Shown here: piece after piece, positions 9,458-30,919 of the stretch
Layout: every line of letters begins with the position of its first letter
Position numbering within the stretch: the stretch's first letter is position 1
NCBI GenBank assembly: GCA_964542785.1
Contig: CAZIUK010000001.1
Span: 332,701-396,700, forward strand
Source: an uncultured Planctomycetales bacterium
GTDB taxonomy: Bacteria > Omnitrophota > Gorgyraeia > Gygaellales > Profunditerraquicolaceae
Direction of reading: 5' to 3'
DNA length: 64,000 nt
Made by a program: the position numbers and the translations under genes
The notes under the pieces: model-generated
What the model saw: only the letters and a program-made list of their open reading frames with translations
The model's database searches: none
Told to the model about the DNA's origin: nothing

Positions 9458-9861
9458 AGAAACTGATTGTCGAGAAGTACCTCGGTATTCCCTATAAGCA
9501 CAGGGGCAGGACGCTGGACGGTCTTGACTGCTGGGGGTTCCTGAAGCTGGTGTATGCCGATCTCGGGTTCAGGCTTTTTGATATTGAAAATCTCGAGTAC
9601 GAGAAAGTCTGGGGGCTTCGTGGCAAAGATTACTTCAGGGAAAACTACGAGAACGACTGGGAAAAAGTTTCAAACCCCGATGTTCTCGACGGCGTACTGT
9701 TTGTGAATTCACGGGGTGTTGCCAATCATGCGGGTGTTGTGTTTAAGAACAGGAAGTTTATCCACTGTTGCCGTCAGGGCGTTGTGGTTTCAAGGCTTGA
9801 TGATGAGAGCTGGAATAAAAAGATTGAGGGTTTTTACAGGTTAAGGAACAAAAAATGGTAG
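9334..9861 (+). CDS. Tail assembly protein K-like NlpC/P60 cysteine peptidase; the start is uncertain (possibly 9382) and the 5' end overlaps the L gene
   Basis: An NlpC/P60 active-site-like motif (LDGLDCWGF) is present. Position and size match lambda gpK. Confidence 0.6.
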   Translation: MRIRRSRINMRQNTTEMQTVGELPEVWRFPFGADTTDLHHVEKLIVEKYLGIPYKHRGRTLDGLDCWGFLKLVYADLGFRLFDIENLEYEKVWGLRGKDYFRENYENDWEKVSNPDVLDGVLFVNSRGVANHAGVVFKNRKFIHCCRQGVVVSRLDDESWNKKIEGFYRLRNKKW

Positions 9862-12800
9862 TTATACGGAACATAGACAATCCATTCAAACTGGAAGACG
9901 CACAGGTCAAGGAGCTTGCCTTCTCAAGGGAGAAGTCTTTGCGTTCTTTTCTTGATGAGTCAGGGTTTGATTATAAAGACAAACGTGTCATCGTTTCGGG
10001 AAAACGCATAAGCGATCTTGATTCTAAACTTGAAAACGGAGACGAGATTACTGTTATTCCCGAAGTGCAGGCTCCGGTTGTCGCTGTGATCTCGGCGATA
10101 GTGTCAGCCGTTTGGGCTTATGCGGTCGCACACCCTTTTCTGTTTACATTCTTTGTGCTGTCGATGGGTTATTCCATCTACCAGTACATGAATCAGCCGA
10201 GAATGCCTGATTTTAACCTTGGAAGCGGACCCGCTGGCGGGCTTGATGAAGGATCGCCTACTTACGGGTGGGACGGTGTACAGACTATACAGGAGGTGGG
10301 AGTACCTGTTGCTGTTGTGTACGGCGAGCATAAAATCGGCGGGAACATTATTAATCAGTTTCTTCATGACGATGGTGACAAGAATTACCTGAATGTTCTT
10401 CTCGCCCTTTGTGAAGGCGAAATCGAATCCATCGGGGATATCGAGATAAACAGCAACCCTATCGCCAATTTCGGTGGCGTTACTATTTATGACAAGCTCG
10501 GTGCTAATACCCAAACAATCATTCCGAATTTCGAGGATCTGCATAACCTTTACCCGGTTAATGTGAACCTTACGAAAGACAATCCTCATGTTTATACCAC
10601 TGTTGATTCGGATGTTGAAGCTTTCGAGATTCATTTAAGGCTTGGCAACGGTCTTTACCAACAGAGCGGTGGCGGTGGCATTTCAAGCTGGAGCGTAAGC
10701 TTCAGGGTTGAATATAAACTTCACACCGACCCGGATTATACCGATCTCGGTGAAACTACAATCTCGGCAAAATCACGGTCAACAGTCAGGCGCATATTCC
10801 GCAAAGAAGGTCTTGTTCCCGGTCAGTACGATATTCGTGTGACAAGGACAACAGATGATTCGTCTTTGGATCCGCTCAAGCAAGGCGATCTGATGTGGTT
10901 CCAGTTAGATGAAATCAAGACGGATGACTTGAGGTATCCAAACACTGCCCTTTTGGGACTTAAACTTCTGGCAACGGATCAGCTTTCGGGGTCTATGCCA
11001 AACATCACCTGTGTTGTAAAGGGGAGAAAAGTATCAGCACCGGATGTGCGTAACGCAGGAGTTCCGGTTAACTGGGAAGATTATTACTGGGATGGTTCGG
11101 ATTACCGTTTGCTTGTTGATGACACTCTGCTCGACTGGGACGGATCCACTTATGTGAATCAGTATTGCGCCAACCCTGTGTGGTGCTTGAAAGATTTTAT
11201 TACAAACAGCCGGTATGGTTTGGGTGAGTTTATATCCCCTACAAATCTGGATAACGCTTCACTCTTGGAGATGAGCCAGTATTGCGAGGAGAGGGTTCCT
11301 GACGGTCAGGGCGGTTTTGAGAAACGTTTCAGGATGGATGTCGTTATCGATTCCAACACTAAAGCGCTTGATATGCTTATCCAGCTTTGCGCCACGTTCA
11401 ATGCTATGCCTGTTTACAGCGCAGGCGGGTTGTCTTTCAAGATTGATAAGGAAGCAAACCCGACCCAGCTTTTCGGCATGGGAAATATTCTCAAGGATAC
11501 TTTCGCCCAGAGCTGGAAAACGCTCAAAGAGATTCCGAATGTTATCGAGATACAGTTTATGGATAAAGATAAAGGTTACCGTCAGGAGACGGTTTCATAT
11601 ATTGACGAGGATTCCCTATCTTCGGGTGAACCTATGCGTAAAAGCCAGATCAGGCTTTTTACGACACGCACAAGCTATGCGATCAGAGCGGCTCGATATG
11701 CTTTAAAGGTCGCACGGTATATCAACCGTTCAATCAGCTTTAAGACGGGCATTGACGCTATCGCCTGTCAGGCTGGGGATATTATTTCGATTTCGCATGA
11801 TGTTCCTCAGTGGGGTTTCTCGGGCAGGGTTCAGCCGGATTCAACAACTACGCTTATAAAACTTGACCGCACTATGGTTATTGAGGACGGCAAGTCATAT
11901 ATGATTCAGGTCAGGTTCGCTGATGATTCTATTGAGGAAAAACTTATTACTTCGCCAACCGGAGAGTATACAGAGGTCGAATGCGAAGCGTTCAGCAACC
12001 CACCGCAGGCGTATGACATATACGCTATCGGCGAGACGAACAAGGTCAAAAAGGATTTCCGTGTTGTGTCTATCCAGCGTGAAGGCACGAACGAATGTCA
12101 GATACAGGCTCTTGAGTATAACGAGAATGTTTATGACGATTCGGACATTATCCTTCCGAATAACAACTATTCTTCTCTGTCCTCGGAGATCCCCAATGTT
12201 GAGAATCTCAATTTGACCGAGGCTCTGATTAAGAAAGCAGACGGCACGATCGAGAACGCTATTGATGTCTGGTTCGATAAACCGAACGCCGCTTCTTATT
12301 ACGTCAAGACGTATGCCCGGGCAAAGATTTATATAAGTGATAACGGCGGAGCCAGCTGGGGCTTCAGGGGAGAGACCACCGGCACGCATTTTCAGATACT
12401 CGGCGATATTATTGATGATTACACCTACAAAGTCCGGGTTGTTTCAGTTGCGGATAACGGCGAGGAAGGCGATTTTGAAACCTCACCCACGCAGGAGATC
12501 ACCATTGTCGGTAAATCCGCACCGCCGTCAGATGTGACTTCGTTTCTGGTTAATCAGAACAGGGACATGCTTTATTTCGGTTGGACTGCGATCAGCGATG
12601 TTGACGTATGGGGTTATGAGATAAGGCGTGGGATTGATTGGGAAAGCGGTGAACTTATCACATTCCAGCAAGGCACTTCGTATTTAACAACCGATGTCAA
12701 ACGTGGCGTTGAGCAGAGTTACTGGATTAAGGCTATGGATACTTCGGGCAACTACTCAGAGAACGCCAAGGAAGCGATCGTAACTGTCAGCACGATTCCG

Positions 12801-13478
12801 TTCAGGAATATCATCGCCGAATATGAAGAACACCCCGATTGGCTGGGTACACTTACGAATTTAGAGAGAGACAGCCAGACGCTTATTATTTCAGATGGTT
12901 TTTTATCCGGAACATATGAAACGCCCATCAGGGATATCGGTTATGTGGCTACGGTTTATATCGGTATTGATGTGATTGCCTCATTATCAACCGGTAGACG
13001 CTTTAACAGCGACGGTACGTCACGTTTTGATGACAGCGTGTCTTATCGCTTTACAGGTCAGGAGACGCTTAGAGCGGCCAGTTTCAGGATAAGGACGTCT
13101 GAGGACAATGTCGTATGGAGTGACTGGGTTGATTATCAGGCTGGGGATTATTACTGCCGGTATTTTCAGATTGAGATGACGCTTGAGCGTGAGAACTTGG
13201 GCGACTACGTGACCTGTTCAACTCTCGCCTATTTCGGTGATCTTCCGGATGTGGACGAACACGGGAGCGATGAGGTTACGGTTGCTGATGGCGGCAAAGA
13301 AGTATTTTTCACAAAGACGTACCACGAAGAACCGAGCGTGCATATCGAGATCACATCCGGTGCGGGTATTTACGCAAGATTTGAGAGTAAATCGATCACG
13401 GGTTTTTTAGTCAAACTTTATAACGCACAGGGCGTGGTTCAGTCAGGAATGTTTGACTGGCACAGCCACGGCATTTAG
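9855..13478 (+). CDS. Tail tip / host specificity protein (gpJ-like), with an N-terminal gpI-like segment that carries a hydrophobic helix
   Basis: 1207 aa, the largest tail gene. It follows the M/L/K genes. The protein is beta-rich with FN3-like segments, and the N-terminal 120 aa contain a transmembrane-like helix. Confidence 0.7.
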   Translation: MVVIRNIDNPFKLEDAQVKELAFSREKSLRSFLDESGFDYKDKRVIVSGKRISDLDSKLENGDEITVIPEVQAPVVAVISAIVSAVWAYAVAHPFLFTFFVLSMGYSIYQYMNQPRMPDFNLGSGPAGGLDEGSPTYGWDGVQTIQEVGVPVAVVYGEHKIGGNIINQFLHDDGDKNYLNVLLALCEGEIESIGDIEINSNPIANFGGVTIYDKLGANTQTIIPNFEDLHNLYPVNVNLTKDNPHVYTTVDSDVEAFEIHLRLGNGLYQQSGGGGISSWSVSFRVEYKLHTDPDYTDLGETTISAKSRSTVRRIFRKEGLVPGQYDIRVTRTTDDSSLDPLKQGDLMWFQLDEIKTDDLRYPNTALLGLKLLATDQLSGSMPNITCVVKGRKVSAPDVRNAGVPVNWEDYYWDGSDYRLLVDDTLLDWDGSTYVNQYCANPVWCLKDFITNSRYGLGEFISPTNLDNASLLEMSQYCEERVPDGQGGFEKRFRMDVVIDSNTKALDMLIQLCATFNAMPVYSAGGLSFKIDKEANPTQLFGMGNILKDTFAQSWKTLKEIPNVIEIQFMDKDKGYRQETVSYIDEDSLSSGEPMRKSQIRLFTTRTSYAIRAARYALKVARYINRSISFKTGIDAIACQAGDIISISHDVPQWGFSGRVQPDSTTTLIKLDRTMVIEDGKSYMIQVRFADDSIEEKLITSPTGEYTEVECEAFSNPPQAYDIYAIGETNKVKKDFRVVSIQREGTNECQIQALEYNENVYDDSDIILPNNNYSSLSSEIPNVENLNLTEALIKKADGTIENAIDVWFDKPNAASYYVKTYARAKIYISDNGGASWGFRGETTGTHFQILGDIIDDYTYKVRVVSVADNGEEGDFETSPTQEITIVGKSAPPSDVTSFLVNQNRDMLYFGWTAISDVDVWGYEIRRGIDWESGELITFQQGTSYLTTDVKRGVEQSYWIKAMDTSGNYSENAKEAIVTVSTIPFRNIIAEYEEHPDWLGTLTNLERDSQTLIISDGFLSGTYETPIRDIGYVATVYIGIDVIASLSTGRRFNSDGTSRFDDSVSYRFTGQETLRAASFRIRTSEDNVVWSDWVDYQAGDYYCRYFQIEMTLERENLGDYVTCSTLAYFGDLPDVDEHGSDEVTVADGGKEVFFTKTYHEEPSVHIEITSGAGIYARFESKSITGFLVKLYNAQGVVQSGMFDWHSHGI

Positions 13479-13717: not shown

Positions 13718-13976
13718 ACAGAAAATTTCAGACGCAATGGCGTACATCGTTGTCCGTGGAGATATCGTTTTGAGGACTCCCCGCAAACGCCCTATGGTCT
13801 ACACCTGTGTCGAGCAGGCATATAACTACGCACAGAACCTTTTCATGCACGACGTTTGCTGGATCGAAACGCTTAGGGAGCATGGTGTTGAGCTTTACGA
13901 CATGAACGAGGTTGCTGAAAAGTACAAGAATAAGGAGGTGTCCAATGGCATGGGACAAGACGAAACCGGAAAATGA
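13698..13976 (+). CDS. Hypothetical small CxxC-containing protein
   Basis: 92 aa counted from the internal ATG that has an AAGGAG RBS. The sequence CHRC...C..C suggests a zinc-ribbon-like protein. Confidence 0.35.
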   Translation: MICHRCKQKISDAMAYIVVRGDIVLRTPRKRPMVYTCVEQAYNYAQNLFMHDVCWIETLREHGVELYDMNEVAEKYKNKEVSNGMGQDETGK

Positions 13977-14445
13977 CATGCTTTTAATCAACTTCCCGGC
14001 CGCTTGCCGTGCGAACTGGGACGCTCTGGAATTGCTGGCGGATCCCAGTTTGCAGATTACCAATGATAAAGTTGCCCCGGGTGCCGGTATCGAAGATACA
14101 AAACTGGCGCAGATTACTACCGCAAATAAAGTTCACGGTTCAGCTCTTACAGGTTTGGCAAGTGTGCCTTCAGCGGCTGGTGTTCTGCCTTCGGCTAATT
14201 CACCGAATAAGTTGAAGGCTGATGTCAGCGATACAACGCCGGAGTATTTGGACGGGTTAATCGATACAGCGGTGTTTCAGATATCAGGCAGTGACCAGTT
14301 GCAGTTAAAAGACGGCGGGGTTGGAACCGGTAAACTGGAAGGCGGAGCGGCTTCCCCCGGTAACAATAAATATTACGGAACGAACGAGTCCGGCACAAAA
14401 GGTTTTTTTGATTTTGGTGCCGGGACAGCGGTTTATGCCACGTAG
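13945..14445 (+). CDS. Putative tail fibre / virion-associated protein
   Basis: 167 aa from MAWDK, with RBS TAAGGAGG. The protein is Gly/Ala/Ser/Thr-rich and fibre-like, and it lies downstream of the J-like gene. Confidence 0.4.
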   Translation: MAWDKTKPENDMLLINFPAACRANWDALELLADPSLQITNDKVAPGAGIEDTKLAQITTANKVHGSALTGLASVPSAAGVLPSANSPNKLKADVSDTTPEYLDGLIDTAVFQISGSDQLQLKDGGVGTGKLEGGAASPGNNKYYGTNESGTKGFFDFGAGTAVYAT

Positions 14446-14453
14446 GAGTTGAT

Positions 14454-15179
14454 ATGGCGCATTTACTACCACCAAAACAATGTTCGGGCAATACGCCCTC
14501 TTGGACGGATCCGACTATTACGGATTTGACCACCGAGGTGCGTAAACCGCACATGGATGAGCTGAGGTCAATGCTGAACGCTGAGTTTACCCGCAGGGGT
14601 AAATCCACCGGCAGTTATACAGACCCGACTATAACAGCGTTGATTACTGAAGTCAGGAAAGTCCATGTTGATGAGTTGCGCTCAGAGCTTGCTCAGTGCA
14701 AGTCCGGCCGTGGCGAGTCAGGTTATTGCCCTGAGGATAATTCGGGCTGTATGGATTTTACCGACCCGACTATTACCGCCCTAGTTACCGAGGTCAGGGG
14801 TGTTCATTTCAGGGAAGCCAGAGACGCTGTTGAGGCTCTTATGACGAGCTGTATCTGCGAGACGGAGCAGTGCCAGTACTGTGCGGACTGCGGGTATCAC
14901 TATACGACCTGTTCGCATGCTTCTGTTGCCTGCGATGACCATAAATATTCTGAGTGTCATCACTCTATAAACCATTACTGGAATTGCGCCAGTATAAATT
15001 TACCGGCCGGAACAGCGCATCCGTATAAGTCAGCTAACCCGCCGGTGGCATGGGATGGATATGTTCCTTGGGATTGGTGTTCATACGCACCGCCCGGATC
15101 GATCTGGGGATCGTGTGAGTATCAAGGCGGTCATAATCATACGGATTGGAATTGTAAATGTAACCCTTATTCATGGTGA
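14454..15179 (+). CDS. Cys/His-rich protein with three TDPTITxLxTEVRKxHxDELRS repeats and a C-terminal Cys domain (13 Cys in about 110 aa); candidate substrate of the adjacent rSAM enzymes
   Basis: An AGGAG RBS precedes the start. The repeats begin at 14505, 14619 and 14760. Many Cys, His, Asp and Glu residues lie in the C-terminal 110 aa. Confidence 0.55.
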   Translation: MAHLLPPKQCSGNTPSWTDPTITDLTTEVRKPHMDELRSMLNAEFTRRGKSTGSYTDPTITALITEVRKVHVDELRSELAQCKSGRGESGYCPEDNSGCMDFTDPTITALVTEVRGVHFREARDAVEALMTSCICETEQCQYCADCGYHYTTCSHASVACDDHKYSECHHSINHYWNCASINLPAGTAHPYKSANPPVAWDGYVPWDWCSYAPPGSIWGSCEYQGGHNHTDWNCKCNPYSW

Positions 15180-15183
15180 TGAA

Positions 15184-15579
15184 ATGTTTAAAGACCAAAT
15201 GAAACCGCATAAATTGACGAAGGCTGTATCGGTTCGTGAAAAAGAGGACATGATAACCGAGCTGATTTACTGGGCGAAGAATAATTTAGATGACGGCAGT
15301 GTCGGGACGTTCACTCAAGGCAAGTTTCCCGATGTTGAGAGTTTTATTTCGGCGTTGCAGGAAGTGTATCAGGGACTTGGTGTTGAGGGCGTTAATGGCA
15401 ACACATCCGATTATCTGCTGATCATAGCCGGGGATAAAAAGAACAAGATTTATCTGTCGCATATTGCCCCATTGGATAAGGACAAGGCACAACTATTTAC
15501 GGACAGGCTGGGCATGGACGTGAAAGAAATAAGCGACTATTTAAGCAAATTAGATTGGAGAAAAGATGTCAGTCTTTGA
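15184..15579 (+). CDS. Hypothetical protein upstream of the rSAM trio (possible recognition or chaperone component); the track starts it at 15055, overlapping the upstream gene
   Basis: About 131 aa from MFKDQ. Its 3' end overlaps the start of rSAM-1. Confidence 0.4.
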   Translation: MFKDQMKPHKLTKAVSVREKEDMITELIYWAKNNLDDGSVGTFTQGKFPDVESFISALQEVYQGLGVEGVNGNTSDYLLIIAGDKKNKIYLSHIAPLDKDKAQLFTDRLGMDVKEISDYLSKLDWRKDVSL

Positions 15580-16783
15580 ACTGAAAAACTCACAAGCATG
15601 CGGTGACCTGCCTTCTCAGTGCAGGGACATCATAAAGCGGTATAAAGGCGACGGCATGTTCGATATTGATTCGATCACGAATGGCCGTCAGGAATATACC
15701 ACTGTCTATTTTTTAATGACTCAGGACTGCAATCTCAATTGCCCCTATTGTTATCAGCCAAAAGAGTTCAGGCAGAAGAATTCAGATATTCCGCAGAGCG
15801 TTATCGATAAGACGATGTCTTGGGTGTCCAAGACATTTGATGAACGTAAAGTTAAATTTAGCATATTCGGCGGTGAACCGTTCATGAATATCCCGATGGT
15901 CAAATACCTCTGCGACACGTATTGCATGTATCGGTACGTAGTTACGACAAACGGTCTTATTCTTCTCAATGATTCAGGTTTGCGGGACTGGGTATTAAAG
16001 CACAAGTATCACCTCAATCTCAGCGTGAGCATATCTGCCCTCAAGAGAGTGTTGGGAAAGTCATATTTGAACAAGGCAAAGCCTGTTCTTGATTTGGTAA
16101 AGGCTAACGGTGGCGATGTTCACTTCGTGGTTGATGATCCGGAATGCCCTATGGTTTATGAGGAGATCGTCTGGCTGTATGAATACGGCGTGCCGGTTGT
16201 GCGGGTTTCTTCTGCTCGGCACTGGGATATGGTCAAGAACAAGAATGAGCAGTTTAAGGAGCTGTTTAAGCGCATAGCTGATTACGTTTATTTCAGCGGT
16301 GAGCCGAAGTTCAACCGGTCGCAGTGGGATATTGCGTTTAAGAACAATATCTACCGCAAATTAAAGGGCATTGATTTGAAAGATGTCCCGCCTACGTTCT
16401 GCGGGTGCGGGTATCTTTACATCGCTGTTAATAACAAAGGTGAGATTTTCCCCTGCGACTTCTTTGCTAACTATCCGGAGTTTAAGATCGGTGATGTTGA
16501 GACTGGGTTTAATGATACAGCCTACTTTTTCAAGAAGATGGGTGACTGGATTGATGACCTTTACGAGCATTGCCGTGGGTGTGAGGTATGCCTTGACGGT
16601 GATATACGCTGTTGCCCTCGGGCGATGTGTTTGGCTGAAAATTACACGGTTACAGGCAATCCGCTTAAACCGGCACCGAATCATTGCTGGGCAAATAGGA
16701 TCGAGGCTTCAACGCATGAATACATCGCACGCAAAGCCATTGAGACTGGCATAGATGAGATTTATCACGGAGGTCGCAAATGA
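15566..16783 (+). CDS. Radical SAM/SPASM-domain maturase 1
   Basis: The N-terminal CNLNCPYC motif is a CxxxCxxC cluster. The C-terminus carries additional Cys clusters (CGCGY...PCDFF..CRGCEVC...CC) typical of SPASM/twitch auxiliary Fe-S domains. Confidence 0.75.
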   Translation: MSVFELKNSQACGDLPSQCRDIIKRYKGDGMFDIDSITNGRQEYTTVYFLMTQDCNLNCPYCYQPKEFRQKNSDIPQSVIDKTMSWVSKTFDERKVKFSIFGGEPFMNIPMVKYLCDTYCMYRYVVTTNGLILLNDSGLRDWVLKHKYHLNLSVSISALKRVLGKSYLNKAKPVLDLVKANGGDVHFVVDDPECPMVYEEIVWLYEYGVPVVRVSSARHWDMVKNKNEQFKELFKRIADYVYFSGEPKFNRSQWDIAFKNNIYRKLKGIDLKDVPPTFCGCGYLYIAVNNKGEIFPCDFFANYPEFKIGDVETGFNDTAYFFKKMGDWIDDLYEHCRGCEVCLDGDIRCCPRAMCLAENYTVTGNPLKPAPNHCWANRIEASTHEYIARKAIETGIDEIYHGGRK

Positions 16784-17865
16784 GGATACCTACGTATAAA
16801 TCAGTTTATCTGTACTTAACGCATGCGTGCAACGTCCACTGTTCGTTTTGTTACAGGAAGGGTTTGTTCGACCGCAATCCTATGTCAACGCTTGGACCCG
16901 CAAGTATGTCTATTAAGACGGCGGATGACATTCTTGATTTTTGTTTTACGAAGCTGAAACTCGACCCCAAGTTTACGATCTACTTCTGGGGCGGTGAGCC
17001 GACTATCAACTTCAAGGTGATTAAGCATGTTATGGAAAAGTATCCGCAAATGCAGTTTCACACCAACACCAACGGATCTTTGGTTAAGGGTGAGATGCTG
17101 GATTACTTTTTGGGTAATCGAAGCATTGGTCTGACATGGTCGTTTGGCAATTGCTATGAGAAGTACGGCGGAGTTCGCCAGAAAGCCGAGGCTGAACCCG
17201 GCATGTTGAAACTCGTTCGGGATAATCCCAACCATAACGTAAACTTTATGGTCGTTAGATACGACAAGCTCGAAGAAGATTTCGATTACATCGCCAACAA
17301 TATAACGCACAACATCACGATCGACCTTGCTACCCGCTTTGACCATAAGGAAGAAGATCTGGAACGGTTTGCCGAGCAGTATTTCAAGTTGCTTCAGAAA
17401 TATAAGCGTGAGTCAGAGCTGTATAAGACACTTAATCCGGCACTGCATTCAAACGCTTATGTCAGGGAGTTCGGGTTAAAGGCTCAGGTCAAGGACTTCC
17501 ACTTTTGCCGGACAGGATTGGAGCGTTTGTTTATCGATACTGCGGGCGGTATATGGCAATGCGACAACATGTATATCTGCCAGCATAACAAACTGGGAAC
17601 GGTCTACGACGGCATTGATTATTCAAAGCTGGGTTATGTTTGGGATATTGACGAGAACCGTGAGAAGTATTTAGGCAGGTTCTGTGAGAATTGCGAGCTG
17701 TACCGGCAGTGCCCACGCAATAAGTGTCTGGGATTAAACCTCGAGCATATGGGCGATATGTTTAAACCCGAACCCGGTTACTGCGCCATGAATAAGGTTT
17801 TGTTTAAGGTTATCAAAAAATATATAGAGCTTGAAAGGAGTTACAGATGTCAGAACAAGAATTAG
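16780..17865 (+). CDS. Radical SAM/SPASM-domain maturase 2
   Basis: The N-terminal CNVHCSFC motif is a CxxxCxxC cluster. The C-terminus has Cys clusters (CRTG...QCDN...CENCELYRQCPRNKC). An ATGA overlap joins it to rSAM-1. Confidence 0.75.
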   Translation: MRIPTYKSVYLYLTHACNVHCSFCYRKGLFDRNPMSTLGPASMSIKTADDILDFCFTKLKLDPKFTIYFWGGEPTINFKVIKHVMEKYPQMQFHTNTNGSLVKGEMLDYFLGNRSIGLTWSFGNCYEKYGGVRQKAEAEPGMLKLVRDNPNHNVNFMVVRYDKLEEDFDYIANNITHNITIDLATRFDHKEEDLERFAEQYFKLLQKYKRESELYKTLNPALHSNAYVREFGLKAQVKDFHFCRTGLERLFIDTAGGIWQCDNMYICQHNKLGTVYDGIDYSKLGYVWDIDENREKYLGRFCENCELYRQCPRNKCLGLNLEHMGDMFKPEPGYCAMNKVLFKVIKKYIELERSYRCQNKN

Positions 17866-19016
17866 TAGCCGGTAATTTAAAGAACGAGATTAAAAGCGTT
17901 GATCTGTTCATTACCGAAAAGTGCAACATGAAGTGCGATTACTGTTTTCATCCAAAGACCGGGGCTGTGCTTTCGGTTGAGCAAGGCAAAAAGATACTCG
18001 ATCGGTTGAAACAGTTAAGTCCGGAGTCAATGCAGATCACTTTCTTCGGGGGAGAGCCGTTGCTTTATCCGAAGACGGTTTTGGAGCTTGCGGAATACGC
18101 ACGCAATCTCTGGCCACCGGATGATAAGGGTCGCCACACTTCGACCTTTTCGATCTCAACAAACGGAACGTATTTTGATGAGGATGTTTTTAAGAGGTTT
18201 GCCGAACTTGGCATGGCGGTTCAGGTCAGCTGTGATGGCGATGAGATCACGCATACCGAATACCGCCACGGAGATTACAACCTTATCGTTGAGAATATGA
18301 AGAAGATATTAAAGATTAAGCCGGACATGAGCGTGCGTATGACTTTTACGCCCAAGACTGTCGGCAGGCTTTCGATCAATATCAAGTATCTTCATCAGGA
18401 GATCGGCGTTACGAAGATCATGCACCACGCTGTTATCGAAGATGACTGGACGGATGACGCTGTTGAGCAGTACGCCTATCAGCTTGGTCAGGTTTACCAT
18501 TACAGGCGTTACTGCAAGAGGCAGGATATCCCGCTTCATATCGCCTTCATTGATAAACCGCTCAAGATTGTAAACGACGAATTGCCGCCTGAGAAGGAGT
18601 TTTGCCAAGCCGGTAAAAGCTACATCGCCGTGCTGGATAATGGCGACGTTTATCCCTGCCACAGAGCCGCAAGCGCAAGGATCTTTAAGCTGGGCAACAT
18701 CTTCAACGAGGTGCCGTTTATCAGGGGGATATTCTTGAATATAGATAAGGAGTACACCGGCTGTGCGAAGCACTGCAAGCACGCAAAAACCTGCCACAGT
18801 TGCGTCATTACGCATTACAAAGTCAATCAGGAGCTTACGGTTCCTGTGACGAAGTATTGCAAGATATGTGCTGTTGAAAGCGATCAGGCTTTGGGTTTCC
18901 TGCCGGTTGAGCTTGCGGATCGGCGGGAACGTATGCTTTTCAAGATCGGGCAGGTTTTGGTTGATGTCGCAAAGCAAGGTGAGGAAATTTTACAGGCATT
19001 AAAAAAGGAGGACTGA
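17847..19016 (+). CDS. Radical SAM/SPASM-domain maturase 3
   Basis: The N-terminal motif is CNMKCDYC. The C-terminal Cys clusters are CQAG...PCHR...CAKHCKHAKTCHSC. Its start overlaps rSAM-2. Confidence 0.75.
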   Translation: MSEQELVAGNLKNEIKSVDLFITEKCNMKCDYCFHPKTGAVLSVEQGKKILDRLKQLSPESMQITFFGGEPLLYPKTVLELAEYARNLWPPDDKGRHTSTFSISTNGTYFDEDVFKRFAELGMAVQVSCDGDEITHTEYRHGDYNLIVENMKKILKIKPDMSVRMTFTPKTVGRLSINIKYLHQEIGVTKIMHHAVIEDDWTDDAVEQYAYQLGQVYHYRRYCKRQDIPLHIAFIDKPLKIVNDELPPEKEFCQAGKSYIAVLDNGDVYPCHRAASARIFKLGNIFNEVPFIRGIFLNIDKEYTGCAKHCKHAKTCHSCVITHYKVNQELTVPVTKYCKICAVESDQALGFLPVELADRRERMLFKIGQVLVDVAKQGEEILQALKKED

Positions 19017-19018
19017 AA

Positions 19019-19309
19019 ATGTCAAAAGTATTAGCACATGAAGAAATAATTATCAGTACTGCAGTTAAGCAGTTAACCCCGGCGATATATAACCCCTCGG
19101 AAGGGGCGCCAGCGGTGTTCGCCATTATCCATGCCGAGGACGGACCTATGAGGTATTTCGTGAACGGTCAGAATCCTTCGCAGTCGTCAGGGGCGTTGCT
19201 TGAGGACGGCGATATTGTTGAGCTTCCGTCTATTTACCACATAAAGGATTTTAGGGTTGTCCGGTCAGGTAATGACGACGGTAAATTAACGGTCACGTAT
19301 GAAGACTAA
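19019..19309 (+). CDS. Hypothetical protein
   Basis: 96 aa. An RBS-like AAGGAGGA lies upstream. Confidence 0.4.
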   Translation: MSKVLAHEEIIISTAVKQLTPAIYNPSEGAPAVFAIIHAEDGPMRYFVNGQNPSQSSGALLEDGDIVELPSIYHIKDFRVVRSGNDDGKLTVTYED

Positions 19310-19321
19310 GGAGGTTAAAAA

Positions 19322-19873
19322 ATGCATCTTAATCATAAAAAATCAAGCAGGATTGTAAACAGGATCACTGAGATAAATACCACTGGTGGTTTGCCGAAAA
19401 CAGGTCAGATGATGTCTTGGTATCCGTTTGATGACGGTTATTATCAAATCGGTCACCCTATTAACTGGGGTCAAAGATTCGTTGATAACGGAAACGGAAC
19501 CGTGACCGATATGGCTACTGGGTTGATTTGGGTTAAAGATCCAGCGGCCGCTGGTTTTGGATCTCCAATGCAATGGTATAACGCCCTTGATGCGTGCGAG
19601 AATTTGAACTATGCGGGTTACAGCGATTGGCGATTGCCGAATGTTTTTGAAATAGCATCAATTAATGATTATGGAAGATACGATCCTGCCTTAGATACTT
19701 CCTATTTTGCTCCGTGTCCAGATCAATGGGGCGTTTGGTGGTCATCGACTATTTGCGCTCCATGGAGTGACGGGGCTTGGGCTGTGTATGCCTATGACGG
19801 TTATTTAACTACGTACGGAATAATCTGGGGTGATCAGTGTTATGTTCGCCCTGTCCGTGGCGGTCAATCATAA
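19322..19873 (+). CDS. DUF1566 (Lcl C-terminal-like) domain protein; possible tail fibre tip or adhesin module
   Basis: It contains the motifs TGLIWVKD...DWRLPN..E...YWSST, which are characteristic of DUF1566. Confidence 0.5.
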   Translation: MHLNHKKSSRIVNRITEINTTGGLPKTGQMMSWYPFDDGYYQIGHPINWGQRFVDNGNGTVTDMATGLIWVKDPAAAGFGSPMQWYNALDACENLNYAGYSDWRLPNVFEIASINDYGRYDPALDTSYFAPCPDQWGVWWSSTICAPWSDGAWAVYAYDGYLTTYGIIWGDQCYVRPVRGGQS

Positions 19874-22040: not shown

Positions 22041-23622
22041 ATGGTGAATAATCATTCAAAGTTATCAAAGGAACAAGAGCGCGCCGAACTGCACCGAGCC
22101 ATTTGGCAAATTGCCAATGACTTGCGTGGCAGTGTCGACGGTTGGGATTTTAAGCAATATGTTTTGGGGATGCTTTTTTATCGGTTCATTAGCGAGAACT
22201 TGACGAACTATATCAATGCCGATGAGCGTCGCACCGGCAACAAAGATTTTGATTATACAACGCTTTCCGACAAAGAAGCTGAGTTCGGGCGTGCTGATAC
22301 GGTTAAAGAAAAAGGGTTTTATATTTTACCGAGTGAACTTTTTGTAAACGTGACCAAAAAGGCACGTAACAATCCTAACCTTAACGAAACTCTTGCCGGT
22401 ATCTTTCGTGACATTGAAAATTCGGCAAAAGGTACCGACAGCGAAGATGACCTCAAAGGGTTATTTGATGACTTGGATGTAAACTCAACGAAGCTGGGCA
22501 ATACTGTTGAGAAAAGAAATCAGAGACTTGTAAAACTTTTAGAAGCCATAGGCGGACTTCGTTTAGGAGATTATTCTGGCAACACAATAGATGCGTTTGG
22601 TGATGCGTATGAGTTTTTGATGACCATGTATGCCTCAAATGCCGGTAAGTCTGGAGGAGAATTTTTCACGCCTCAGGAAGTCAGCGAGCTTTTGGCTGAG
22701 ATCGCAACCGTTGGAAAGAAGGAAGTCAACAAAGTATATGATCCCGCTTGTGGATCAGGTTCACTGCTTCTTAAGTTTGCGAAGGTTCTTGGTAAAGGAA
22801 AAGTCAGACAAGGATTCTTTGGGCAAGAGATCAATCTTACGACATACAACCTTTGCCGTATCAATATGTTTTTGCATGATATCAATTATGAGAAATTTGA
22901 CATTGCTCACGGTGATACCCTGACCGATCCAAAGCACTGGGATGATGAGCCGTTTGACGCTATTGTTTCTAATCCACCCTACTCTATTAAATGGGAAGGT
23001 GACGCCAATCCTATTTTGATAAATGACCCCCGTTTTTCACCTGCGGGTGTGTTGGCACCCAAAAGTAAAGCAGATCTTGCATTTACTATGCACATGCTTT
23101 CCTGGCTGTCTACAAGCGGGACAGCGGCTATTGTTGAGTTCCCCGGTGTTCTCTATCGTGGTGGCGCAGAAAAGAAAATCCGCAAATATTTAATTGATAA
23201 CAACTATGTTGATACGGTAATTCAGCTTCCGCCTGACCTCTTTTTCGGGACGACAATTGCCACCTGCATTATTGTTATCAAGAAAAGCAAGAAAGATAAT
23301 AAAACACTTTTCATCGATGCCTCGGCTGAGTTTGTTCGTGGTGGTAATAAAAATAAATTGACGGAAACAAATCGATCCAAAATTTTAGAATCCTTTACAG
23401 ACAGAAAAAATAAAGCGCATTTTGCGAAGCTTGTCGACAATAAGACGATTGCCGAAAATGAATACAATATTTCGGTATCGAGTTATGTCGTTGCTGAAGA
23501 TAAGCGTGAAGTAATTGATATTCAGGTGCTCAATAAAGAAATTACTCAGATTGTAAAGCGTCAGCAAGAATTGCGTTCTGCGATTGATGAGATCGTGAAT
23601 GATATTGAAGGTGCGAAACAGC

Positions 23623-23630
<8 letters not shown>
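22041..23630 (+). CDS. hsdM: Type I restriction-modification system, N6-adenine DNA methyltransferase subunit M
   Basis: 529 aa. It carries the NPPY motif (SNPPYSIKW) and a SAM-binding fold, with an N-terminal HsdM-type domain. Confidence 0.85.
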
Positions 23631-24823
<1,193 letters not shown>

Positions 24824-24834
<11 letters not shown>

Positions 24835-27800
24835 TCATAAATATGATCTAGTCGCCCAAAATCCGCATAGCACGGTTGTGGCAGAATATACCCCTGAGTA
24901 TGGGGCAAGAAAAAAGCGTGCTGAGCAGTATCAAAGTGAGGCGGAACTTGAGCAGGCGTTTATCGAACAGCTTGAATTGCAGGCTTATGAGCGTTTGTCT
25001 ATTTCCTCAGAGGAGGGGTTAAAACAAAATTTACGCAAGCAATTGGAAAAACTCAATGACTATGCGTTTAGCGATTCAGAATGGGAGCAATTCTTCGTAG
25101 GAGAATTGGCAAATCCTAATCAGAGTATTGTTGAGAAAACAACGACGATTCAGGAAGATCATATTAAGAATCTCACCCGTGATGACGGCACAGTAAAGAA
25201 TATTTATTTACTGGATAAGCAAAGTATTCACAACAATAGTTTGCAGGTTATTAATCAATATGCCATTGACGATGGCAAGAGACCGAACCGCTATGATGTG
25301 ACGGTATTGGTGAATGGGTTGCCGTTGGTGCATATCGAACTTAAGCGTCGAGGGGTAGCGATTCAGGAAGCATTTAATCAGATTAATCGATATCAGAGGG
25401 AGAGCTTTTGGGCATCAAGCGGGCTATTTGAATATGTGCAATTGTTTGTTATTTCCAACGGAACGCATACCAAATATTACAGCAACACCACACGCTCGGA
25501 GCATCTTAAAGAAATCAGTGGAAACAAAGTAAGGAAAGGAAAACGCTCAAGCAATAGTTTTGAGTTTACGAGCTGGTGGGCAGATGCGACAAATAAGCCT
25601 ATTGCGGACTTGATGGATTTTGCCAAAACTTTTTTTGCCAAGCATACACTTCTTAATATTTTGACACGTTATTGTGTTTTTACCTCAGAGAAACAGCTTT
25701 TGGCTATGCGTCCTTACCAGATTGTAGCTACTGAGAAGATTTTAAACAGAATCACGGTAAGTACGAATTATAAAAAACTCGGCACAATCGATGCGGGTGG
25801 ATATATCTGGCATACCACAGGATCTGGAAAGACGTTGACGAGCTTTAAAGCCTCACAGCTTGCAAGCAAACTGCCGGGTATAGATAAGGTCTTATTCGTT
25901 GTTGATCGCAAAGATCTGGATTATCAAACAATGCGGGAGTATGACAAGTTTGAAAAAGGTGCGGCTAACGGCAACACCAGCACAGCGATATTAAAGCGAC
26001 AACTTGAAGATCCTAATGCACGCATCATTATCACCACTATCCAGAAATTAGACCGTTTCATAAAACGTAATGGTGAACATGAAATTTTCAAAGGGCATAC
26101 TGTGCTTATTTTTGACGAGTGCCATCGCTCCCAGTTTGGCGATATGCATGGTGGCATTACAAAAGCGTTTAAGAATTATCATTTGTTTGGTTTCACCGGA
26201 ACCCCTATTTTCGCTATCAATGCTTCAACAAGCGGTAGACCAGATTTAAAAACTACCCAGCAGGCTTTTGGCGACAAGCTCCACACTTATACCATTGTTG
26301 ACGCTATTGCAGACAAGAATGTTTTACCGTTCAAGGTAGATTTTATTTCCACAATGAAAGAAAGAGAAGATATTCCTGATAAGAAGGTAAGCGATATTGA
26401 CCGTGAGAAGGCTCTTGCTGATCCGATTCGTATCGCCAATAACGTTAAGTATATTCGTGAGCATTTTGACCAGAAAACGAAACGGAATAGTTTTTATAAA
26501 TTAAAAGACCGCAGATTAGCGGGTTTCAATTCTATCTTTGCCGTTTCGTCGATTGACGTGGCTAAAAAATATTATGCCGAATTTAAGAAGCAACTTGCGG
26601 ATTTGCCGAGTGATAAACAGCTTAAAGTGGCGACCATTTACAGCTTTGGTGTGAATGAAGAGGATGTTGATGGTTTAATTGATGATGAAAATCCTGAAGA
26701 CACAAGCGGATTGGACGCAAGCTCAAGAGACTTTCTGGACAATGCGATTAGAGACTACAACGCAATGTTCGGCACATCGTACGACACCTCGTCTGATAAG
26801 TTTCAGAATTATTACAAAGACCTTAGTGAGCGAGTGAAGAATCGAGAGGTTGATATTCTAATCGTCGTTAATATGTTTTTGACTGGATTTGACGCAACAA
26901 CCCTCAATACGCTTTGGGTTGATAAGAATTTGCGATTGCACGGATTGCTTCAAGCGTATTCACGCACTAATCGTATTTTGAATACTATTAAGACGTTCGG
27001 GAATATTGTTTGTTTCCGGAATTTAGAAAAAGCGACCAATGAATCCATTGCTCTTTTTGGCGACAAGGAAGCCAGCGGGATTGTGCTCTTAAAATCGTAT
27101 GATGAATATTACAACGGCTACAAAGACGGCAACAAGGAAGTGCGTGGATATAAAAGTCTGATTGAAGAGCTGTTAGATCGATTTCCTGTTGGTGAGCGGA
27201 TCTTGGGCGAGCAAAATCAGAAAGGTTTTATCAGGCTTTACGGTGCCATTTTGCGTGTGCGGAATATATTGGTCACTTTTGATGAGTTTACCGGGAACGA
27301 AATCTTAACGGAACGTGATGTGCAGGATTATCACAGTGCATATATTGATCTGTACAAAGAATTGCGAAAAACCGGTGATGATGAGAAAGAAAATATCAAT
27401 GATGATTTAGTTTTTGAGATGGAGTTGATCAAGCAAATTGAGATCAATATCGATTACATTCTAGCTCTTATTAGAAAGTATCATGCTGATCATACGAAAA
27501 ACCGTGAAATCTTGGTTGATATTAATAAGGCAATTGATTCAAGCGTTGAGTTGCGCAACAAGAAAGATCTTATTAATCAGTTTATTACGTCACTTGATGT
27601 TGGATCTTCTATTGATGATGAATGGCAGGAATATGTTAAACAGAAAAAGACGGAAGAACTTGAGGCGATCATTACTGATGAAAATCTTGATCGCGAAGCA
27701 ACGTATAAGTTTATGCGCAATGCGTTTCGGGATGGAAGCGTTGCATCGACCGGTACAGCTATTGCCAAGGTTCTGCCTCCGGTGTCACGTTTTTCTCAGA

Positions 27801-27892
27801 CCGGCGAGCGCACTAAAAAGCGAGAGAGTGTTATTGAAAAACTAACCAGATTCTTTGAGCGGTTTTTTGATATCTCGAATGATGAGGTATAG
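24824..27892 (+). CDS. hsdR: Type I R-M restriction subunit R (SF2 helicase/endonuclease)
   Basis: 1022 aa. It has Walker A (TTGSGKTLT) and DEAD-box (FDECHRSQ) motifs plus an N-terminal nuclease-like domain. Confidence 0.85.
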
Positions 27893-27957
27893 AAAAGTTT
27901 TTGTGAAAATGCACGTAGTTAGTAGAGCTTTGGATTATTTAAGAAAAGGAGTTTTAG

Positions 27958-29046
27958 ATGGCAAAAATTGTTTGCTTGGATGAAGAAGAGAAGAAGTCTA
28001 AACTTGTTAGCTTTCTTCAGAAAGCAATTCAATCTGCACATATAAATTTCTTGATCGGATCGGGATGCTCTTCACATGTTATCCCAACTCTTGGAAATAT
28101 TGAAGAGAAGATTCAGGGATTAATAGATGAAAATAAGCCAAATGATGCAGAGGTTGAAACTTTTAATTATTTGGGGACTTTTCTTGATAGTTACGAGAAG
28201 TTGAATGATTTGGCTGACGCGTCAAGCAAGAAGGTTGTTGATGAATATCTTTTGTTTCTTAGACTTATAACGGAATGTCTTTCAAATAGAGAAAACAATA
28301 TTTTACCTAAACAGGCCACAGTGTTTTCTACAAACTATGATCTTTTTGTTGAAAAGGCATTCGAGCAATTGGAGATGCAAGCAAGGCTTAGTGATGGATT
28401 CTCAAGAGTGCCTTTATTGACGGGACGTTTTTTGTTTTCTCCTGCTGAATTTTTTAACTCGGTATTGAACAATGGGAATATTTATAACTATCAAGTTCAA
28501 ATACCATCGATAAACCTAATTAAGCTTCATGGATCGCTTAGTTGGCAATCACAAGATAAAAATATTTTATTTTCTACGGAATGGCTAGATGAAGCTATTG
28601 CAGAACGCAAAAAAGCTTTGGATGGAAATAATCTTGAAAGCAAAACAAAATTAAATTCGAGATTTGCGGTAGTTCTTCCGAAAAAGGATAAGTTCAAGGA
28701 TTCGATTCTTAATCAGATTTACTATGATTTATTAAGAATTTATGCAAATCAATTGGATAGAGAGAACACTCTGCTAATTGTTATCGGATTTTCTTTCTCA
28801 GATGAGCATATTCTTGAAATTACGAAAAGAGCTTTAAGGAATCCAACTTTAAAGCTTGTAATATTTTGCCATGAGTCAAAAGGAGTGGATGTTTTTAAAG
28901 ATAAATTTTTAACTTTTAATAATGTGGATATTGTTCATTCCGAGAAATCCGATGTTTCATTTTCTAAAGCCTGTCTTTTTATTCAGGATGTTTTGCAAAT
29001 GAAAAACATGAGGTGCGAAAGGAGTTCAACTCAAGATGATGGATGA
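27958..29046 (+). CDS. SIR2-family (SIR2_2-like) NADase protein of a SIR2-HerA antiphage system
   Basis: It carries the motifs FLIGSGCSSHVIP and KLHGSLSW typical of SIR2_2. It is coupled to the HerA-like ATPase gene by an ATGATGGATGA overlap. Confidence 0.7.
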   Translation: MAKIVCLDEEEKKSKLVSFLQKAIQSAHINFLIGSGCSSHVIPTLGNIEEKIQGLIDENKPNDAEVETFNYLGTFLDSYEKLNDLADASSKKVVDEYLLFLRLITECLSNRENNILPKQATVFSTNYDLFVEKAFEQLEMQARLSDGFSRVPLLTGRFLFSPAEFFNSVLNNGNIYNYQVQIPSINLIKLHGSLSWQSQDKNILFSTEWLDEAIAERKKALDGNNLESKTKLNSRFAVVLPKKDKFKDSILNQIYYDLLRIYANQLDRENTLLIVIGFSFSDEHILEITKRALRNPTLKLVIFCHESKGVDVFKDKFLTFNNVDIVHSEKSDVSFSKACLFIQDVLQMKNMRCERSSTQDDG

Positions 29047-30919
29047 TTTGTTAAGAAAATCGATTCTTCGGGTTGGAGAAGTTTCTGGAATAGAGGGTCG
29101 AAAGATTTTTGTAAAAGTAGATAAGGACAAAAACTCTTCCGATCTTTTATTAGATGGCGATGTTATTAAGAATGTGGCTGTGGGTGCCTATATTGAAATA
29201 AGAAAAGGCTTTATTAGTATTATTGGGAAAATTGATGGAGAGAAGCTTAGGGAAGATGTGTCAGAGAAGTTCATTCGCGATTATAAACAATTAAACAAGA
29301 ACGACAGGTCATTAACTGTGAGCCTTGTTGGGTATATCGGAATGGATGGTCGTTTTGAAGGAGGGATTAAAGAATTACCCTTGATTGGGAATGAGGCGTT
29401 TATCTTGACTGAACGCAAGCTTCATAGTGTGCATAACTTGCTAAAGGAAGATCTGTCTTTGAAAGTTTGTATTGCGAAAACAGATGTTGAAGAAATTCCT
29501 GTAAGCTTACCAGTAGATGGAATTTTCAATAGCCATATTGCAATTTTTGGAAATACAGGTAGTGGAAAATCGAATACTTTAGCTTCATTATATCAGGGGT
29601 TGTTTGCTGAATGCTCAAAAAGAAGGGATTTTGTCGAGAAATCTCGGTTTTTATTTTTTGACTTTAATGGTGAGTATGTAAAGGAACATTGTTTAACTGA
29701 AAACAAAAAACCCTACAATTTAAGAACTCAAGACGGTGCAGGTGATAAAATTCCTCTTTCATTTGAGGATTTTTTTGATAGCGAAACTTTATCTATTTTA
29801 ACCGAGGCAACGGATAAAACCCAGAAGCCGTTCTTGAAAAGATCGCTGAGGTTTTTTAAGAATGCAAAGTCCAAAGATAATTTTGGTGCTTATTTTAAGG
29901 GCATTCTTCAGAATAAGATAAAAAGCATTTTAAGAATGGCCAATAAAGATGTCGCTTATAAATTGCTTGATTATATGCGGGAAATTTTATCGGGCTTTAT
30001 TGAAGAAGATAATGATCTGTTTGGGGATATTGAGTTCCATGGGCTAAATAAAACATTTAAAAGACTCGATGCGGAAATTTATTTTAATAGTAATCCGGAT
30101 GCTATTGAAAATACGAAATCATATATGGCGGTAGTTTCGATGGAAGAGGATGCAATAACATCAATTCCATGTTTAGGGCAGTTTTATATCTTTCTGCACT
30201 TGCAACTTATTGATGATCTTTTAACTTACAAAGTCCAAAATGACCATATCTATCCGCTTATCAATAGATTCAAGGCGAAGCAGACAAGCATTACGCGGAC
30301 TTTTGAAATCGTAGACAACCCTGATTTTTGGAAGAATTTTAATTGTGTTGTTATTAATTTACATGATGCAAACTTGGATATGAAGAAGACCCTTCCATTA
30401 TTGATCGCAAAGAGTTTGTATGATGAGCATAAGAAGGAACAGAATAAAAAATCTTTAAATATCATAATTGATGAGGCGCATAATATTCTTTCAAAAACAT
30501 CTTTTCGCGAGACGGAAGACTGGAAAGATTATCGTCTAGAGACCTTTGAAGAGATTATTAAGGAAGGTCGTAAGTTTGGTGTTTTTCTGACAATATCGAG
30601 TCAGAGACCAAATGATATTTCTGAAACCATTATTTCCCAGGCACACAACTATTTTATACATCAATTAATCAATGAGAGGGATTTGCGCACAATAGGAAAT
30701 GCTGTTTCTTATATTGATAAGATAACTGAAGAAGCAATTCCAACATTGCCAGTTGGAACATGCGTGTTTAGTGGCATTGCTACTCCGATGCCTTTGAAGA
30801 TAAAGATTGAAGAATTATCAGAGGCGAATAAGCCCGATAGTAAAACTTTGAAATTTAAGGATATCGTTGGAGATGTTGTTGAAGAAGACAATTTGGACGA
30901 TTGGATAAATCAATTATAG
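29036..30919 (+). CDS. HerA/FtsK-like ATPase partner of the SIR2-HerA system
   Basis: It has Walker A (FGNTGSGKSNT), Walker B (IIIDEAHNIL) and the C-terminal SSQRP motif. Confidence 0.75.
   Translation: MMDDLLRKSILRVGEVSGIEGRKIFVKVDKDKNSSDLLLDGDVIKNVAVGAYIEIRKGFISIIGKIDGEKLREDVSEKFIRDYKQLNKNDRSLTVSLVGYIGMDGRFEGGIKELPLIGNEAFILTERKLHSVHNLLKEDLSLKVCIAKTDVEEIPVSLPVDGIFNSHIAIFGNTGSGKSNTLASLYQGLFAECSKRRDFVEKSRFLFFDFNGEYVKEHCLTENKKPYNLRTQDGAGDKIPLSFEDFFDSETLSILTEATDKTQKPFLKRSLRFFKNAKSKDNFGAYFKGILQNKIKSILRMANKDVAYKLLDYMREILSGFIEEDNDLFGDIEFHGLNKTFKRLDAEIYFNSNPDAIENTKSYMAVVSMEEDAITSIPCLGQFYIFLHLQLIDDLLTYKVQNDHIYPLINRFKAKQTSITRTFEIVDNPDFWKNFNCVVINLHDANLDMKKTLPLLIAKSLYDEHKKEQNKKSLNIIIDEAHNILSKTSFRETEDWKDYRLETFEEIIKEGRKFGVFLTISSQRPNDISETIISQAHNYFIHQLINERDLRTIGNAVSYIDKITEEAIPTLPVGTCVFSGIATPMPLKIKIEELSEANKPDSKTLKFKDIVGDVVEEDNLDDWINQL

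Follow-up and report, generated by a model that had tools for sequence, protein, structure and literature searches.

On balance, we favour the view that a cysteine-rich protein encoded in a prophage sits at the tip of the phage tail and has its Cys knot covalently cross-linked by radical S-adenosylmethionine (rSAM) enzymes that the same phage encodes. The protein has 241 amino acids (aa) and is encoded in the window analysed here (the whole 64,000-nt stretch of contig CAZIUK010000001.1), whose positions 1 to ~21,700 are the right part of a siphovirus-type prophage. It would be part of the virion and the substrate of three rSAM enzymes of the SPASM type encoded just downstream, a reading that we draw from gene linkage, residue conservation and the relationships of the enzymes. 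The layout of the protein, its conserved residues, the linkage and the place in the tail module are observed; virion location, substrate role and chemistry are inferred. The gene and its regions are as follows:

14454..15179, forward strand: Cys-rich gene, 241 aa, with an ATG start and AGGAG 8 nt upstream; putative tail-tip protein and rSAM substrate.
14505..14594, forward strand: repeat 1, aa 18-47 (TDPTITDLTTEVRKPHMDELRS...), with a predicted helix at aa 31-47.
14619..14708, forward strand: repeat 2, aa 56-85, with a predicted helix at aa 69-84.
14709..14759, forward strand: linker between repeats 2 and 3, aa 86-102, with the motif Y91-C92-P93-x-D95 and a variable extra Cys, C99.
14760..14849, forward strand: repeat 3, degenerate, aa 103-132, with a predicted helix at aa 116-131.
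14850..15176, forward strand: C-terminal Cys-rich domain, aa 133-241.

A first-pass annotation, made from the DNA letters, had described an open reading frame (ORF) with repeat units at 14505, 14619 and 14760, and this was borne out exactly. DPTIT occurs at aa 19, 57 and 104, giving repeat spacings of 38 and 47 aa. Self-alignment, the check that the annotation had proposed, yielded local BLOSUM62 scores of 97, 71 and 81 for the three repeat pairs (z = 12-18), compared with 22-24 ± 4 and a maximum of 45 in 2,000 protein shuffles of the same segment. The third unit (TDPTITALVTEVRGVHFREARD) is the most degenerate. As DNA the copies are only 48-57% identical; the repeat is therefore old and maintained at the protein level, and an artefact of recent DNA duplication was rejected on the same figure. 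A chance ORF was also rejected, since the protein has 52 conserved homologue clusters, all of them metagenomic. The Cys cluster that the annotation had pointed out proved equally real. The protein contains 17 Cys, 13 of which fall within the last 111 aa, with the spacings CxC (133/135 and 234/236), CxxC (140/143/146) and Cx6C (146/153/160). This corresponds to 7.1% Cys in the whole protein and 11.7% in its C-terminal part; the median for 46 other window ORFs is 0.63%. A second variable Cys that we count with the linker between repeats 2 and 3, C82, is located just upstream of it, at the end of repeat 2. No signal peptide was evident in the sequence, and the protein found no match in Pfam (E ≤ 0.1), PHROG (E ≤ 0.01), NCBIfam or PDB, nor any tblastn match among 50,697 GenBank phage records. 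The annotation had also proposed a comparison with phage tail-fibre repeat families; the curated tail-fibre repeat and domain families of Pfam and PHROGs gave no profile match to the protein.

Conservation counts were taken from an alignment of 34 family members. Twelve Cys are conserved in at least 90% of them (C10, C92, C133, C135, C140, C143, C146, C153, C160, C178, C234 and C236). In the C-terminal domain, C133, C135, E136, E138, C140, C143, D145, C146, C160, C178, W206, W218, W232, C234 and C236 are invariant and K235 nearly so; in the linker, Y91, C92 and P93 are invariant and D95 is acidic in every member. The many His that the annotation had remarked on in the C-terminal region are not conserved in the family; conserved His are confined to H3 and one position per repeat (H33, H71 and H118). 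An invariant Cys precedes each of D95, E136, E138 and D145 at a distance of 0-4 residues. The resulting Cys-Xn-Asp/Glu pairs are irregularly spaced (n = 0-4), and C92-D95, C133/C135-E136/E138 and C140/C143-D145 are fully conserved.

The genes that follow the Cys-rich gene in the window are:

15187..15579, forward strand: 130-aa accessory protein (p130), a frequent, not universal partner.
15566..16783, forward strand: rSAM/SPASM enzyme 1, 405 aa, with C55/59/62 and seven conserved SPASM Cys.
16780..17865, forward strand: rSAM/SPASM enzyme 2, 361 aa, with C17/21/24 and seven conserved SPASM Cys.
17847..19016, forward strand: rSAM/SPASM enzyme 3, 389 aa, with C26/30/33 and seven conserved SPASM Cys.
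19019..19873, forward strand: 96-aa ORF (p96) and 183-aa Lcl_C-domain protein, conserved with the cassette in siphovirus-type prophages only.

To follow the linkage between the Cys-rich gene and the enzymes we compared 47 loci, each holding a full-length homologue flanked by 0.8 kb of DNA or more. In 46 of them orthologues of the window rSAM genes adjoin the Cys-rich gene, mostly in the order 1-2-3, and all nine genome-derived loci with enough downstream DNA carry rSAM orthologues. The architectures comprise two siphovirus lineages (with J proteins 26% identical), T4-like baseplates (gp25, PAAR, base_V), Baseplate_J types and others, and the Cys-rich gene is the only non-enzyme partner that is constant across them; p130, p96 and the Lcl_C-domain protein are not. 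The p130 family, for instance, is found in the siphovirus-type loci, L052/53, L056 and L057, and is missing from L001-7 and L054. The enzymes themselves show some variation, with the order enzyme 1, enzyme 3, substrate, enzyme 2 in L052 and with enzyme 2 absent from two lineages (L001 and L057). The presence of enzyme 2 coincides with that of a further Cys, in addition to C92, in the linker between repeats 2 and 3 (8/8 lineages, a post hoc observation on a small sample), and the assignment of this Cys as the enzyme 2 site is only a lead. A pairing of enzyme 2 with C209/C221 was rejected, as protein P0037 has neither Cys and occurs together with enzyme 2.

The position of the cassette points to the tail. 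Two further genes of the window are needed here:

9855..13478, forward strand: central tail fibre (lambda J-like), 1207 aa, matching phrog_31 at E 1e-159.
13912..14445, forward strand: 177-aa ORF, a putative fibre shaft ending in ...AVYAT; its true start is likely the ATG at 13945.

In the prophage, genes for a tail tube protein, tail protein L, the J-like fibre, a 76-aa ORF and the 177-aa ORF precede the Cys-rich gene, after which come the 130-aa ORF, the three rSAM/SPASM genes, the 96-aa ORF and the Lcl_C-domain gene. Given the location of the J-like fibre gene, the cassette occupies the distal end of the tail module. The gaps from the 177-aa fibre gene through the third rSAM gene are 8, 7, -14, -4 and -19 nt, and such tiny gaps and overlaps indicate one translationally coupled operon. 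Across the loci the Cys-rich gene is always found at the distal end of a tail or baseplate module, and in two architectures the gene just upstream matches tail-fibre or tail-protein PHROGs. In most architectures (the window, L001, L004, L006, L036, L049-L051, L057 and L069) the product of this upstream gene ends in (V/I/T/K)-Y-(A/G/S)-x, with AVYAT in the window and AVYAA, AIYAP, VTYGA, PTYSA, ATYAE, AKYAE, AVYAP and ATYAP elsewhere, on unrelated backbones; a second type of ending, ...SIV, occurs in L052, L056 and L070. The shared ending is possibly the docking end of a trimeric fibre.

With respect to the enzymes, all ten Cys (CxxxCxxC plus seven SPASM Cys) are kept in 7-9 orthologues of each, and because this holds in every orthologue group the three are probably active, with two auxiliary clusters each. 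Enzyme 1 reached 29.5 bits with the SPASM model TIGR04085 (cut-off 27) and enzyme 3 reached 23.0 bits with Pfam SPASM (PF13186, cut-off 21.5); enzyme 2, at 21.8 bits, is below cut-off and keeps the seven Cys. PHROGs annotates them simply as 'radical SAM domain-containing protein'. Among curated families PapB (NF047865) scored best, followed by the nif11-like, SCIFF, CXXX-repeat, CcpM and QhpD maturases. Scores for enzymes 1 to 3 stayed below the family thresholds for PapB (105.1, 101.4 and 179.8 bits vs 340), QhpD (TIGR03906; 53.6, 64.7 and 80.9 bits vs 453, E 1e-14 to 7e-23) and the SCIFF maturase (TIGR03974; 62.4, 47.8 and 106.8 bits vs 425). Among solved structures, the nearest is that of the thioether synthase CteB (5wgg), which enzyme 3 matched at E 2e-20 and enzyme 1 at 3e-14. 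The alignment begins at CteB residue 91 and the CxxxCxxC motif at enzyme residue 17, 26 or 55, which therefore leaves no room for a CteB-type N-terminal RRE, the recognition element of ribosomally synthesised and post-translationally modified peptide (RiPP) enzymes, so that the phage enzymes must recognise their substrate in some other way.

Taken at face value, these data would fit the following scheme. The N-terminal triple-repeat, pseudo-threefold domain would act as a scaffold or adaptor, fixing the protein to the end of the upstream-encoded fibre, and the last 109 residues would be the substrate segment for the three co-transcribed enzymes. Their most likely reaction would be the removal of hydrogen from a side-chain or backbone carbon, which is then bonded to Cys sulfur. 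The product would be a set of intramolecular thioether bridges at the fully conserved pairs named above, with Cys-to-Asp/Glu bonds as the leading candidate, and the outcome a non-reducible covalent knot at the tail tip. Phages such as this prophage of an anaerobic nanobacterium would then staple a tail protein much as bacteria do with their peptide antibiotics. QhpD forms Cys-to-Asp/Glu bonds (PMC7876137), and in the bonds made by PapB as well as QhpD the Cys sulfur is attached to the beta or gamma carbon of Asp/Glu located C-terminal to the Cys (PMC9413430, PMC12373016, PMC7876137). The parallel that the first-pass annotation had drawn with QhpC, in which the C-terminal Cys cluster is a multi-site cross-linking substrate, appears supported by the linkage in 46/47 loci, by the Cys-Xn-Asp/Glu pairs and by enzymes that stand nearest to thioether maturases.

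The rationale for such chemistry may lie in the hosts. Cassettes nearly identical to that of the window are present in genomes of Candidatus Omnitrophota, one of them the complete Ca. Velamenicoccus archaeovorus LiM genome, and the class Velamenicoccia is predicted to be obligately anaerobic (PMC10066038). Virions of strict anaerobes would be assembled in a reducing cytoplasm, so disulfides would be no option and thioethers would stand in their place. Among 11 genome hits, eight were from Candidatus Omnitrophota, two were labelled Planctomycetales and one Saccharibacteria; such mixed labels suggest mis-binned phage contigs or a broader host range. P0001, a protein 98% identical to that of the window, carries the source label of a Dehalococcoidales metagenome-assembled genome. 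The Omnitrophota genome literature that we searched made no mention of the cassette.

The triple repeat is far more widespread than the phage protein. AlphaFold2 (34 sequences) confidently predicted the first 132 residues as one compact three-helix domain, the best fold match of which is the BARA domain of Vps30/Beclin 1. This domain also has three repeats, of beta-alpha type, but it shares just 5% identity and serves an unrelated function in eukaryotes, so that we take it as no more than a structural analogue. The repeat consensus FTDPTLTAGxTxIKAVHIxELRxAI defines ~38-aa tandem units with an invariant His and E-L-R, and the window protein conforms to it. A search of 1.84 billion representative proteins with a profile built on the family returned 3,739 hits at E ≤ 1e-3 and only 15 at E ≤ 1e-30, so the full-length family is small and the repeat very common. 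We inspected the top 146 representatives: the copy number is exactly three in 126, the module forms the extreme C-terminus in 92, and a Cys-rich tail follows it in 25. The domains with which the module is combined include RHS repeats, subtilases, LamG, fn3, Calx-beta and amidase. In ten example proteins no Pfam model covered the repeat, a further homologue search gave unnamed proteins only, and a PF27469 tag on one homologue could not be resolved within the Pfam set searched. The repeat represents a large uncurated domain family that deserves a name.

None of three repeat-only cellular homologues examined has an rSAM neighbour, and two of them (P0049 and P0050) have a signal-peptide-like N-terminus and lie beside thioredoxin/GILT-like genes. 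It is the Cys-rich C-terminal domain whose occurrence follows that of the enzymes. Cellular relatives at L009 (1522-4146) and L010 (1343-3577) combine a signal-peptide-like N-terminus with three repeats and a different Cys-rich domain, and directly follow a ~500-aa protein with thioredoxin/GILT-like matches. Such relatives flanked by thioredoxin/GILT may be a disulfide-based counterpart of the phage system; being secreted-looking, with thioredoxin-like neighbours, they may use disulfides. The first-pass annotation had read the repeats as iterated, leader-like recognition elements. This no longer stands: since they are predicted to be folded and are widespread, nearly always present as a triplet and found in repeat-only cellular homologues away from rSAM genes, the repeats are a general structural module that works as a triplet.

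Two further phage families combine the same triple repeat and a different Cys-rich tail with downstream rSAM genes, inside baseplate or tail modules. Single-protein scans for the sister family with P0164 and P0130 gave no match. The sister loci are:

L051 2449-7461 and L070 8875-13758: sister cassette of family 1 (L051, L070-72), in myovirus-type baseplate modules, with a tail of the type C-[ILV]-C-[DN]-C...
L069 431-9013: sister family 2, a 210-aa protein with triple repeat and Cys tail plus one adjacent rSAM gene.

The family 1 protein has ~145-150 aa, with three repeats and a tail such as CLCDCDGHCACHCDACGCDC, and is accompanied by a ~330-350-aa protein, a PapB-like rSAM enzyme, a B12-binding rSAM enzyme and a second PapB-like rSAM enzyme. 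In L051 the cassette lies between baseplate hub and PAAR/gp25 genes, inside the structural operon. The L069 protein is found beside a reverse transcriptase (RVT_1) and a protein of the FGE-sulfatase/C-type-lectin fold, a neighbourhood that looks like a diversity-generating retroelement in the same tail module. Because all three types of phage Cys-rich tail beside rSAM genes are fused to the repeat domain, this domain may have a role in docking the enzymes.

A number of points weigh against a cross-linked tail-tip protein. The 47 loci are redundant, coming mostly from two siphovirus lineages, and amount to about ten independent architectures. The sole exception to the linkage, L056, has no rSAM gene in 4.3 kb upstream or 1.7 kb downstream of the Cys-rich gene (6.8-kb contig), and its homologue retains every invariant residue despite this. 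L056 carries a p130 family gene directly after the Cys-rich gene, and its phage closely resembles the L052 phage, in which the three enzymes are all present (the flanking 411/426-aa proteins are 67% identical). A protein that is kept with no rSAM gene in view could instead be a metal-binding knot, in which the C-terminal domain holds three Cys4 zinc sites or Fe-S clusters and the rSAM enzymes act on some other target or only help to handle clusters or metal. The twelve conserved Cys, a multiple of four, and C140-xx-C143-xx-C146 would suit such sites. Nevertheless, we consider this reading unlikely, as it leaves unexplained why two or three SPASM maturases co-occur with the protein in 46/47 loci with the Cys-rich gene as their sole constant partner. 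Neither zinc-finger, ferredoxin nor PAAR profiles of Pfam and NCBIfam matched the 241-aa protein even at E 0.1, its C-terminal His are not conserved, and invariant acidic residues right after invariant Cys are atypical for Cys4 sites. Structure prediction speaks to both sides. In two AlphaFold2 runs (whole protein, 34 sequences; aa 129-241 alone, 46 sequences, mean 48.5) the Cys-rich domain had a predicted local distance difference test score (pLDDT) below 50, and therefore we read no structure from these models. Such failure is also typical of small metal-dependent folds; in a domain so strongly conserved, it is as expected for a chain shaped by cross-links, by analogy with QhpC, which is mostly random coil and held by its cross-links (PMC7876137).

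The weakest step of the cross-linking proposal is the bond type, which is a guess given that no enzyme reaches any curated family cut-off. Weaker NCBIfam matches to cyclophane, dynobactin and WgkB-type maturases, which form C-C bonds, together with the invariant W206, W218 and W232, leave other chemistries open, and Trp, Lys or cyclophane C-C links are equally possible as alternatives to a thioether. As a complete account, a cross-linked tail protein with C-C or C-N bonds to the invariant Trp, of Lys-Trp or cyclophane type, or with mixed chemistries, seems to us very improbable. The near-invariant K235 would provide for it, as would the B12-dependent rSAM enzyme of the sister cassette, usually a methyltransferase, but thioether formers account for all of the best-scoring families and for the nearest solved structure, and what dominates the substrate is its density of conserved Cys.

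A last point concerns the location, since tail-distal regions are hot spots for non-structural cargo genes (morons). The protein might accordingly be a RiPP-like cargo in which the repeats serve as a large leader or docking domain, as in the leader-like reading of the first-pass annotation, and the cross-linked C-terminal part is released or acts alone as a toxin, bacteriocin or host-manipulating factor. The triple repeat does occupy the N-terminal, leader position in all three rSAM-linked phage Cys-tail families, and enzymes with no RRE-sized N-terminal extension need another means of substrate recognition. However, no protease or exporter is conserved in the cassette, and the repeat domain is predicted to be globular and is common in proteins without rSAM neighbours. 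The genes upstream are fibre-like and share their C-terminal endings, and in L051 the cassette is embedded between baseplate hub and PAAR/gp25 in the structural operon. We therefore regard a cargo function as improbable, cargo genes at tail-distal loci being frequent notwithstanding.

Returning to the cross-linked tail tip, a broader form of the proposal can be put forward more tentatively, as something that falls a little short of even. Phages of anaerobes would apply RiPP-like maturation to a virion structural protein, with two or three rSAM/SPASM enzymes cross-linking a Cys-rich fibre-cap tip, the triple repeat matching the threefold fibre, and at least three tip families existing in siphovirus- and myovirus-like phages. 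If true, phages would have their first example of a receptor-binding or tail-tip protein cross-linked by enzymes, and rSAM/SPASM chemistry would extend to virus particles. It would also give a role to many 'radical SAM domain-containing' genes of phage tail regions (phrog_1802) and explain by what means viruses that infect strict anaerobes keep their exposed tail parts stable in the absence of disulfides. For RiPP enzymologists, the system would offer three leader-independent enzymes that act on a 241-aa protein, and for phage biologists a new, recognisable class of tail-tip module.

As for the accessory and neighbouring genes, a listed 174-aa ORF (15055-15579) overlaps the end of the Cys-rich gene in another frame, and homologues favour the 130-aa product from 15187. 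This protein, p130, gave no Pfam or PDB match, so that a stand-alone RRE or a chaperone was unsupported as its identity; it could be a fibre-assembly chaperone. Downstream of the cassette in L001 (16684-19822), L004 (15359-20894) and L006 (14765-20798) we found glycosyltransferases, methyltransferase-like genes, an aminotransferase and further rSAM genes without SPASM, which may serve glycan or other modification. In the window, a defence island (22041-30919) directly follows the end of the prophage and encodes a type I restriction-modification system (HsdM, HsdS and HsdR), then a SIR2-like protein and a HerA-like helicase. Besides these defence genes, the DNA past ~22 kb contains chromosomal genes, including those for ClpB, trehalose synthesis and MscS.

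Among known structures, single-chain pseudo-threefold caps sit on trimeric fibres of phages and of type VI secretion systems, examples being PAAR proteins and the gp38-type tip adhesins of T2/S16-like phages. These resemble the phage protein in that each is either a three-repeat monomer or a small tip protein of its own, with its gene immediately behind that of the fibre or spike; they gave no sequence or fold match to the 241-aa protein, and they are not known to be enzymatically cross-linked. Maturases of the rSAM/SPASM type are known to act on small peptide natural products and on a single enzyme subunit, QhpC, and our literature search found no report of such enzymes acting on phage tail proteins.

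QhpC/QhpD resembles the phage system in that a protein, and not a short peptide, is encoded together with a SPASM enzyme and carries, or in the phage would carry, several intramolecular bridges, with Asp/Glu acceptors near the donor Cys (PMC7876137). In contrast to the phage protein, with its 241 aa, folded N-terminal domain, two or three paralogous enzymes, tail-module setting and lack of a protease or exporter, QhpC has ~110 aa, a cleaved 28-residue leader and one enzyme, in a periplasmic dehydrogenase operon (qhpABCDEFG). The neighbours in the window are phage tail genes and not QhpA/B, the QhpE protease and the QhpF exporter. The ranthipeptides (PapA/PapB, freyrasin) are close in another respect, as PapB is the best curated match of the enzymes and needs a Cys-Xn-Asp/Glu motif in which n is 0-6 and the acceptor lies on the C-terminal side (PMC9413430, PMC12373016), a range that includes the n = 0-4 pairs of the phage protein. 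PapA, however, is a short peptide with six regular CX3D motifs, and PapB recognises its leader peptide via an RRE (PMC12373016), for which the phage enzymes have no extension of sufficient size. Likewise, a ranthipeptide precursor is a short leader-core peptide with Cys-X3-Asp/Glu, in contrast to a 241-aa protein with a folded N-terminal domain. SCIFF/CteB offers the closest solved structure and a Cys-rich substrate, but SCIFF peptides have ~45 aa and six Cys, and the N-terminal domain of CteB is missing from the phage enzymes. The phage cassette resembles the QhpC/QhpD and ranthipeptide pathways, yet falls outside both. An rSAM/SPASM enzyme with a co-encoded Cys-rich substrate is a known kind of system, and its setting in a phage tail is, as far as our searches reach, unprecedented.

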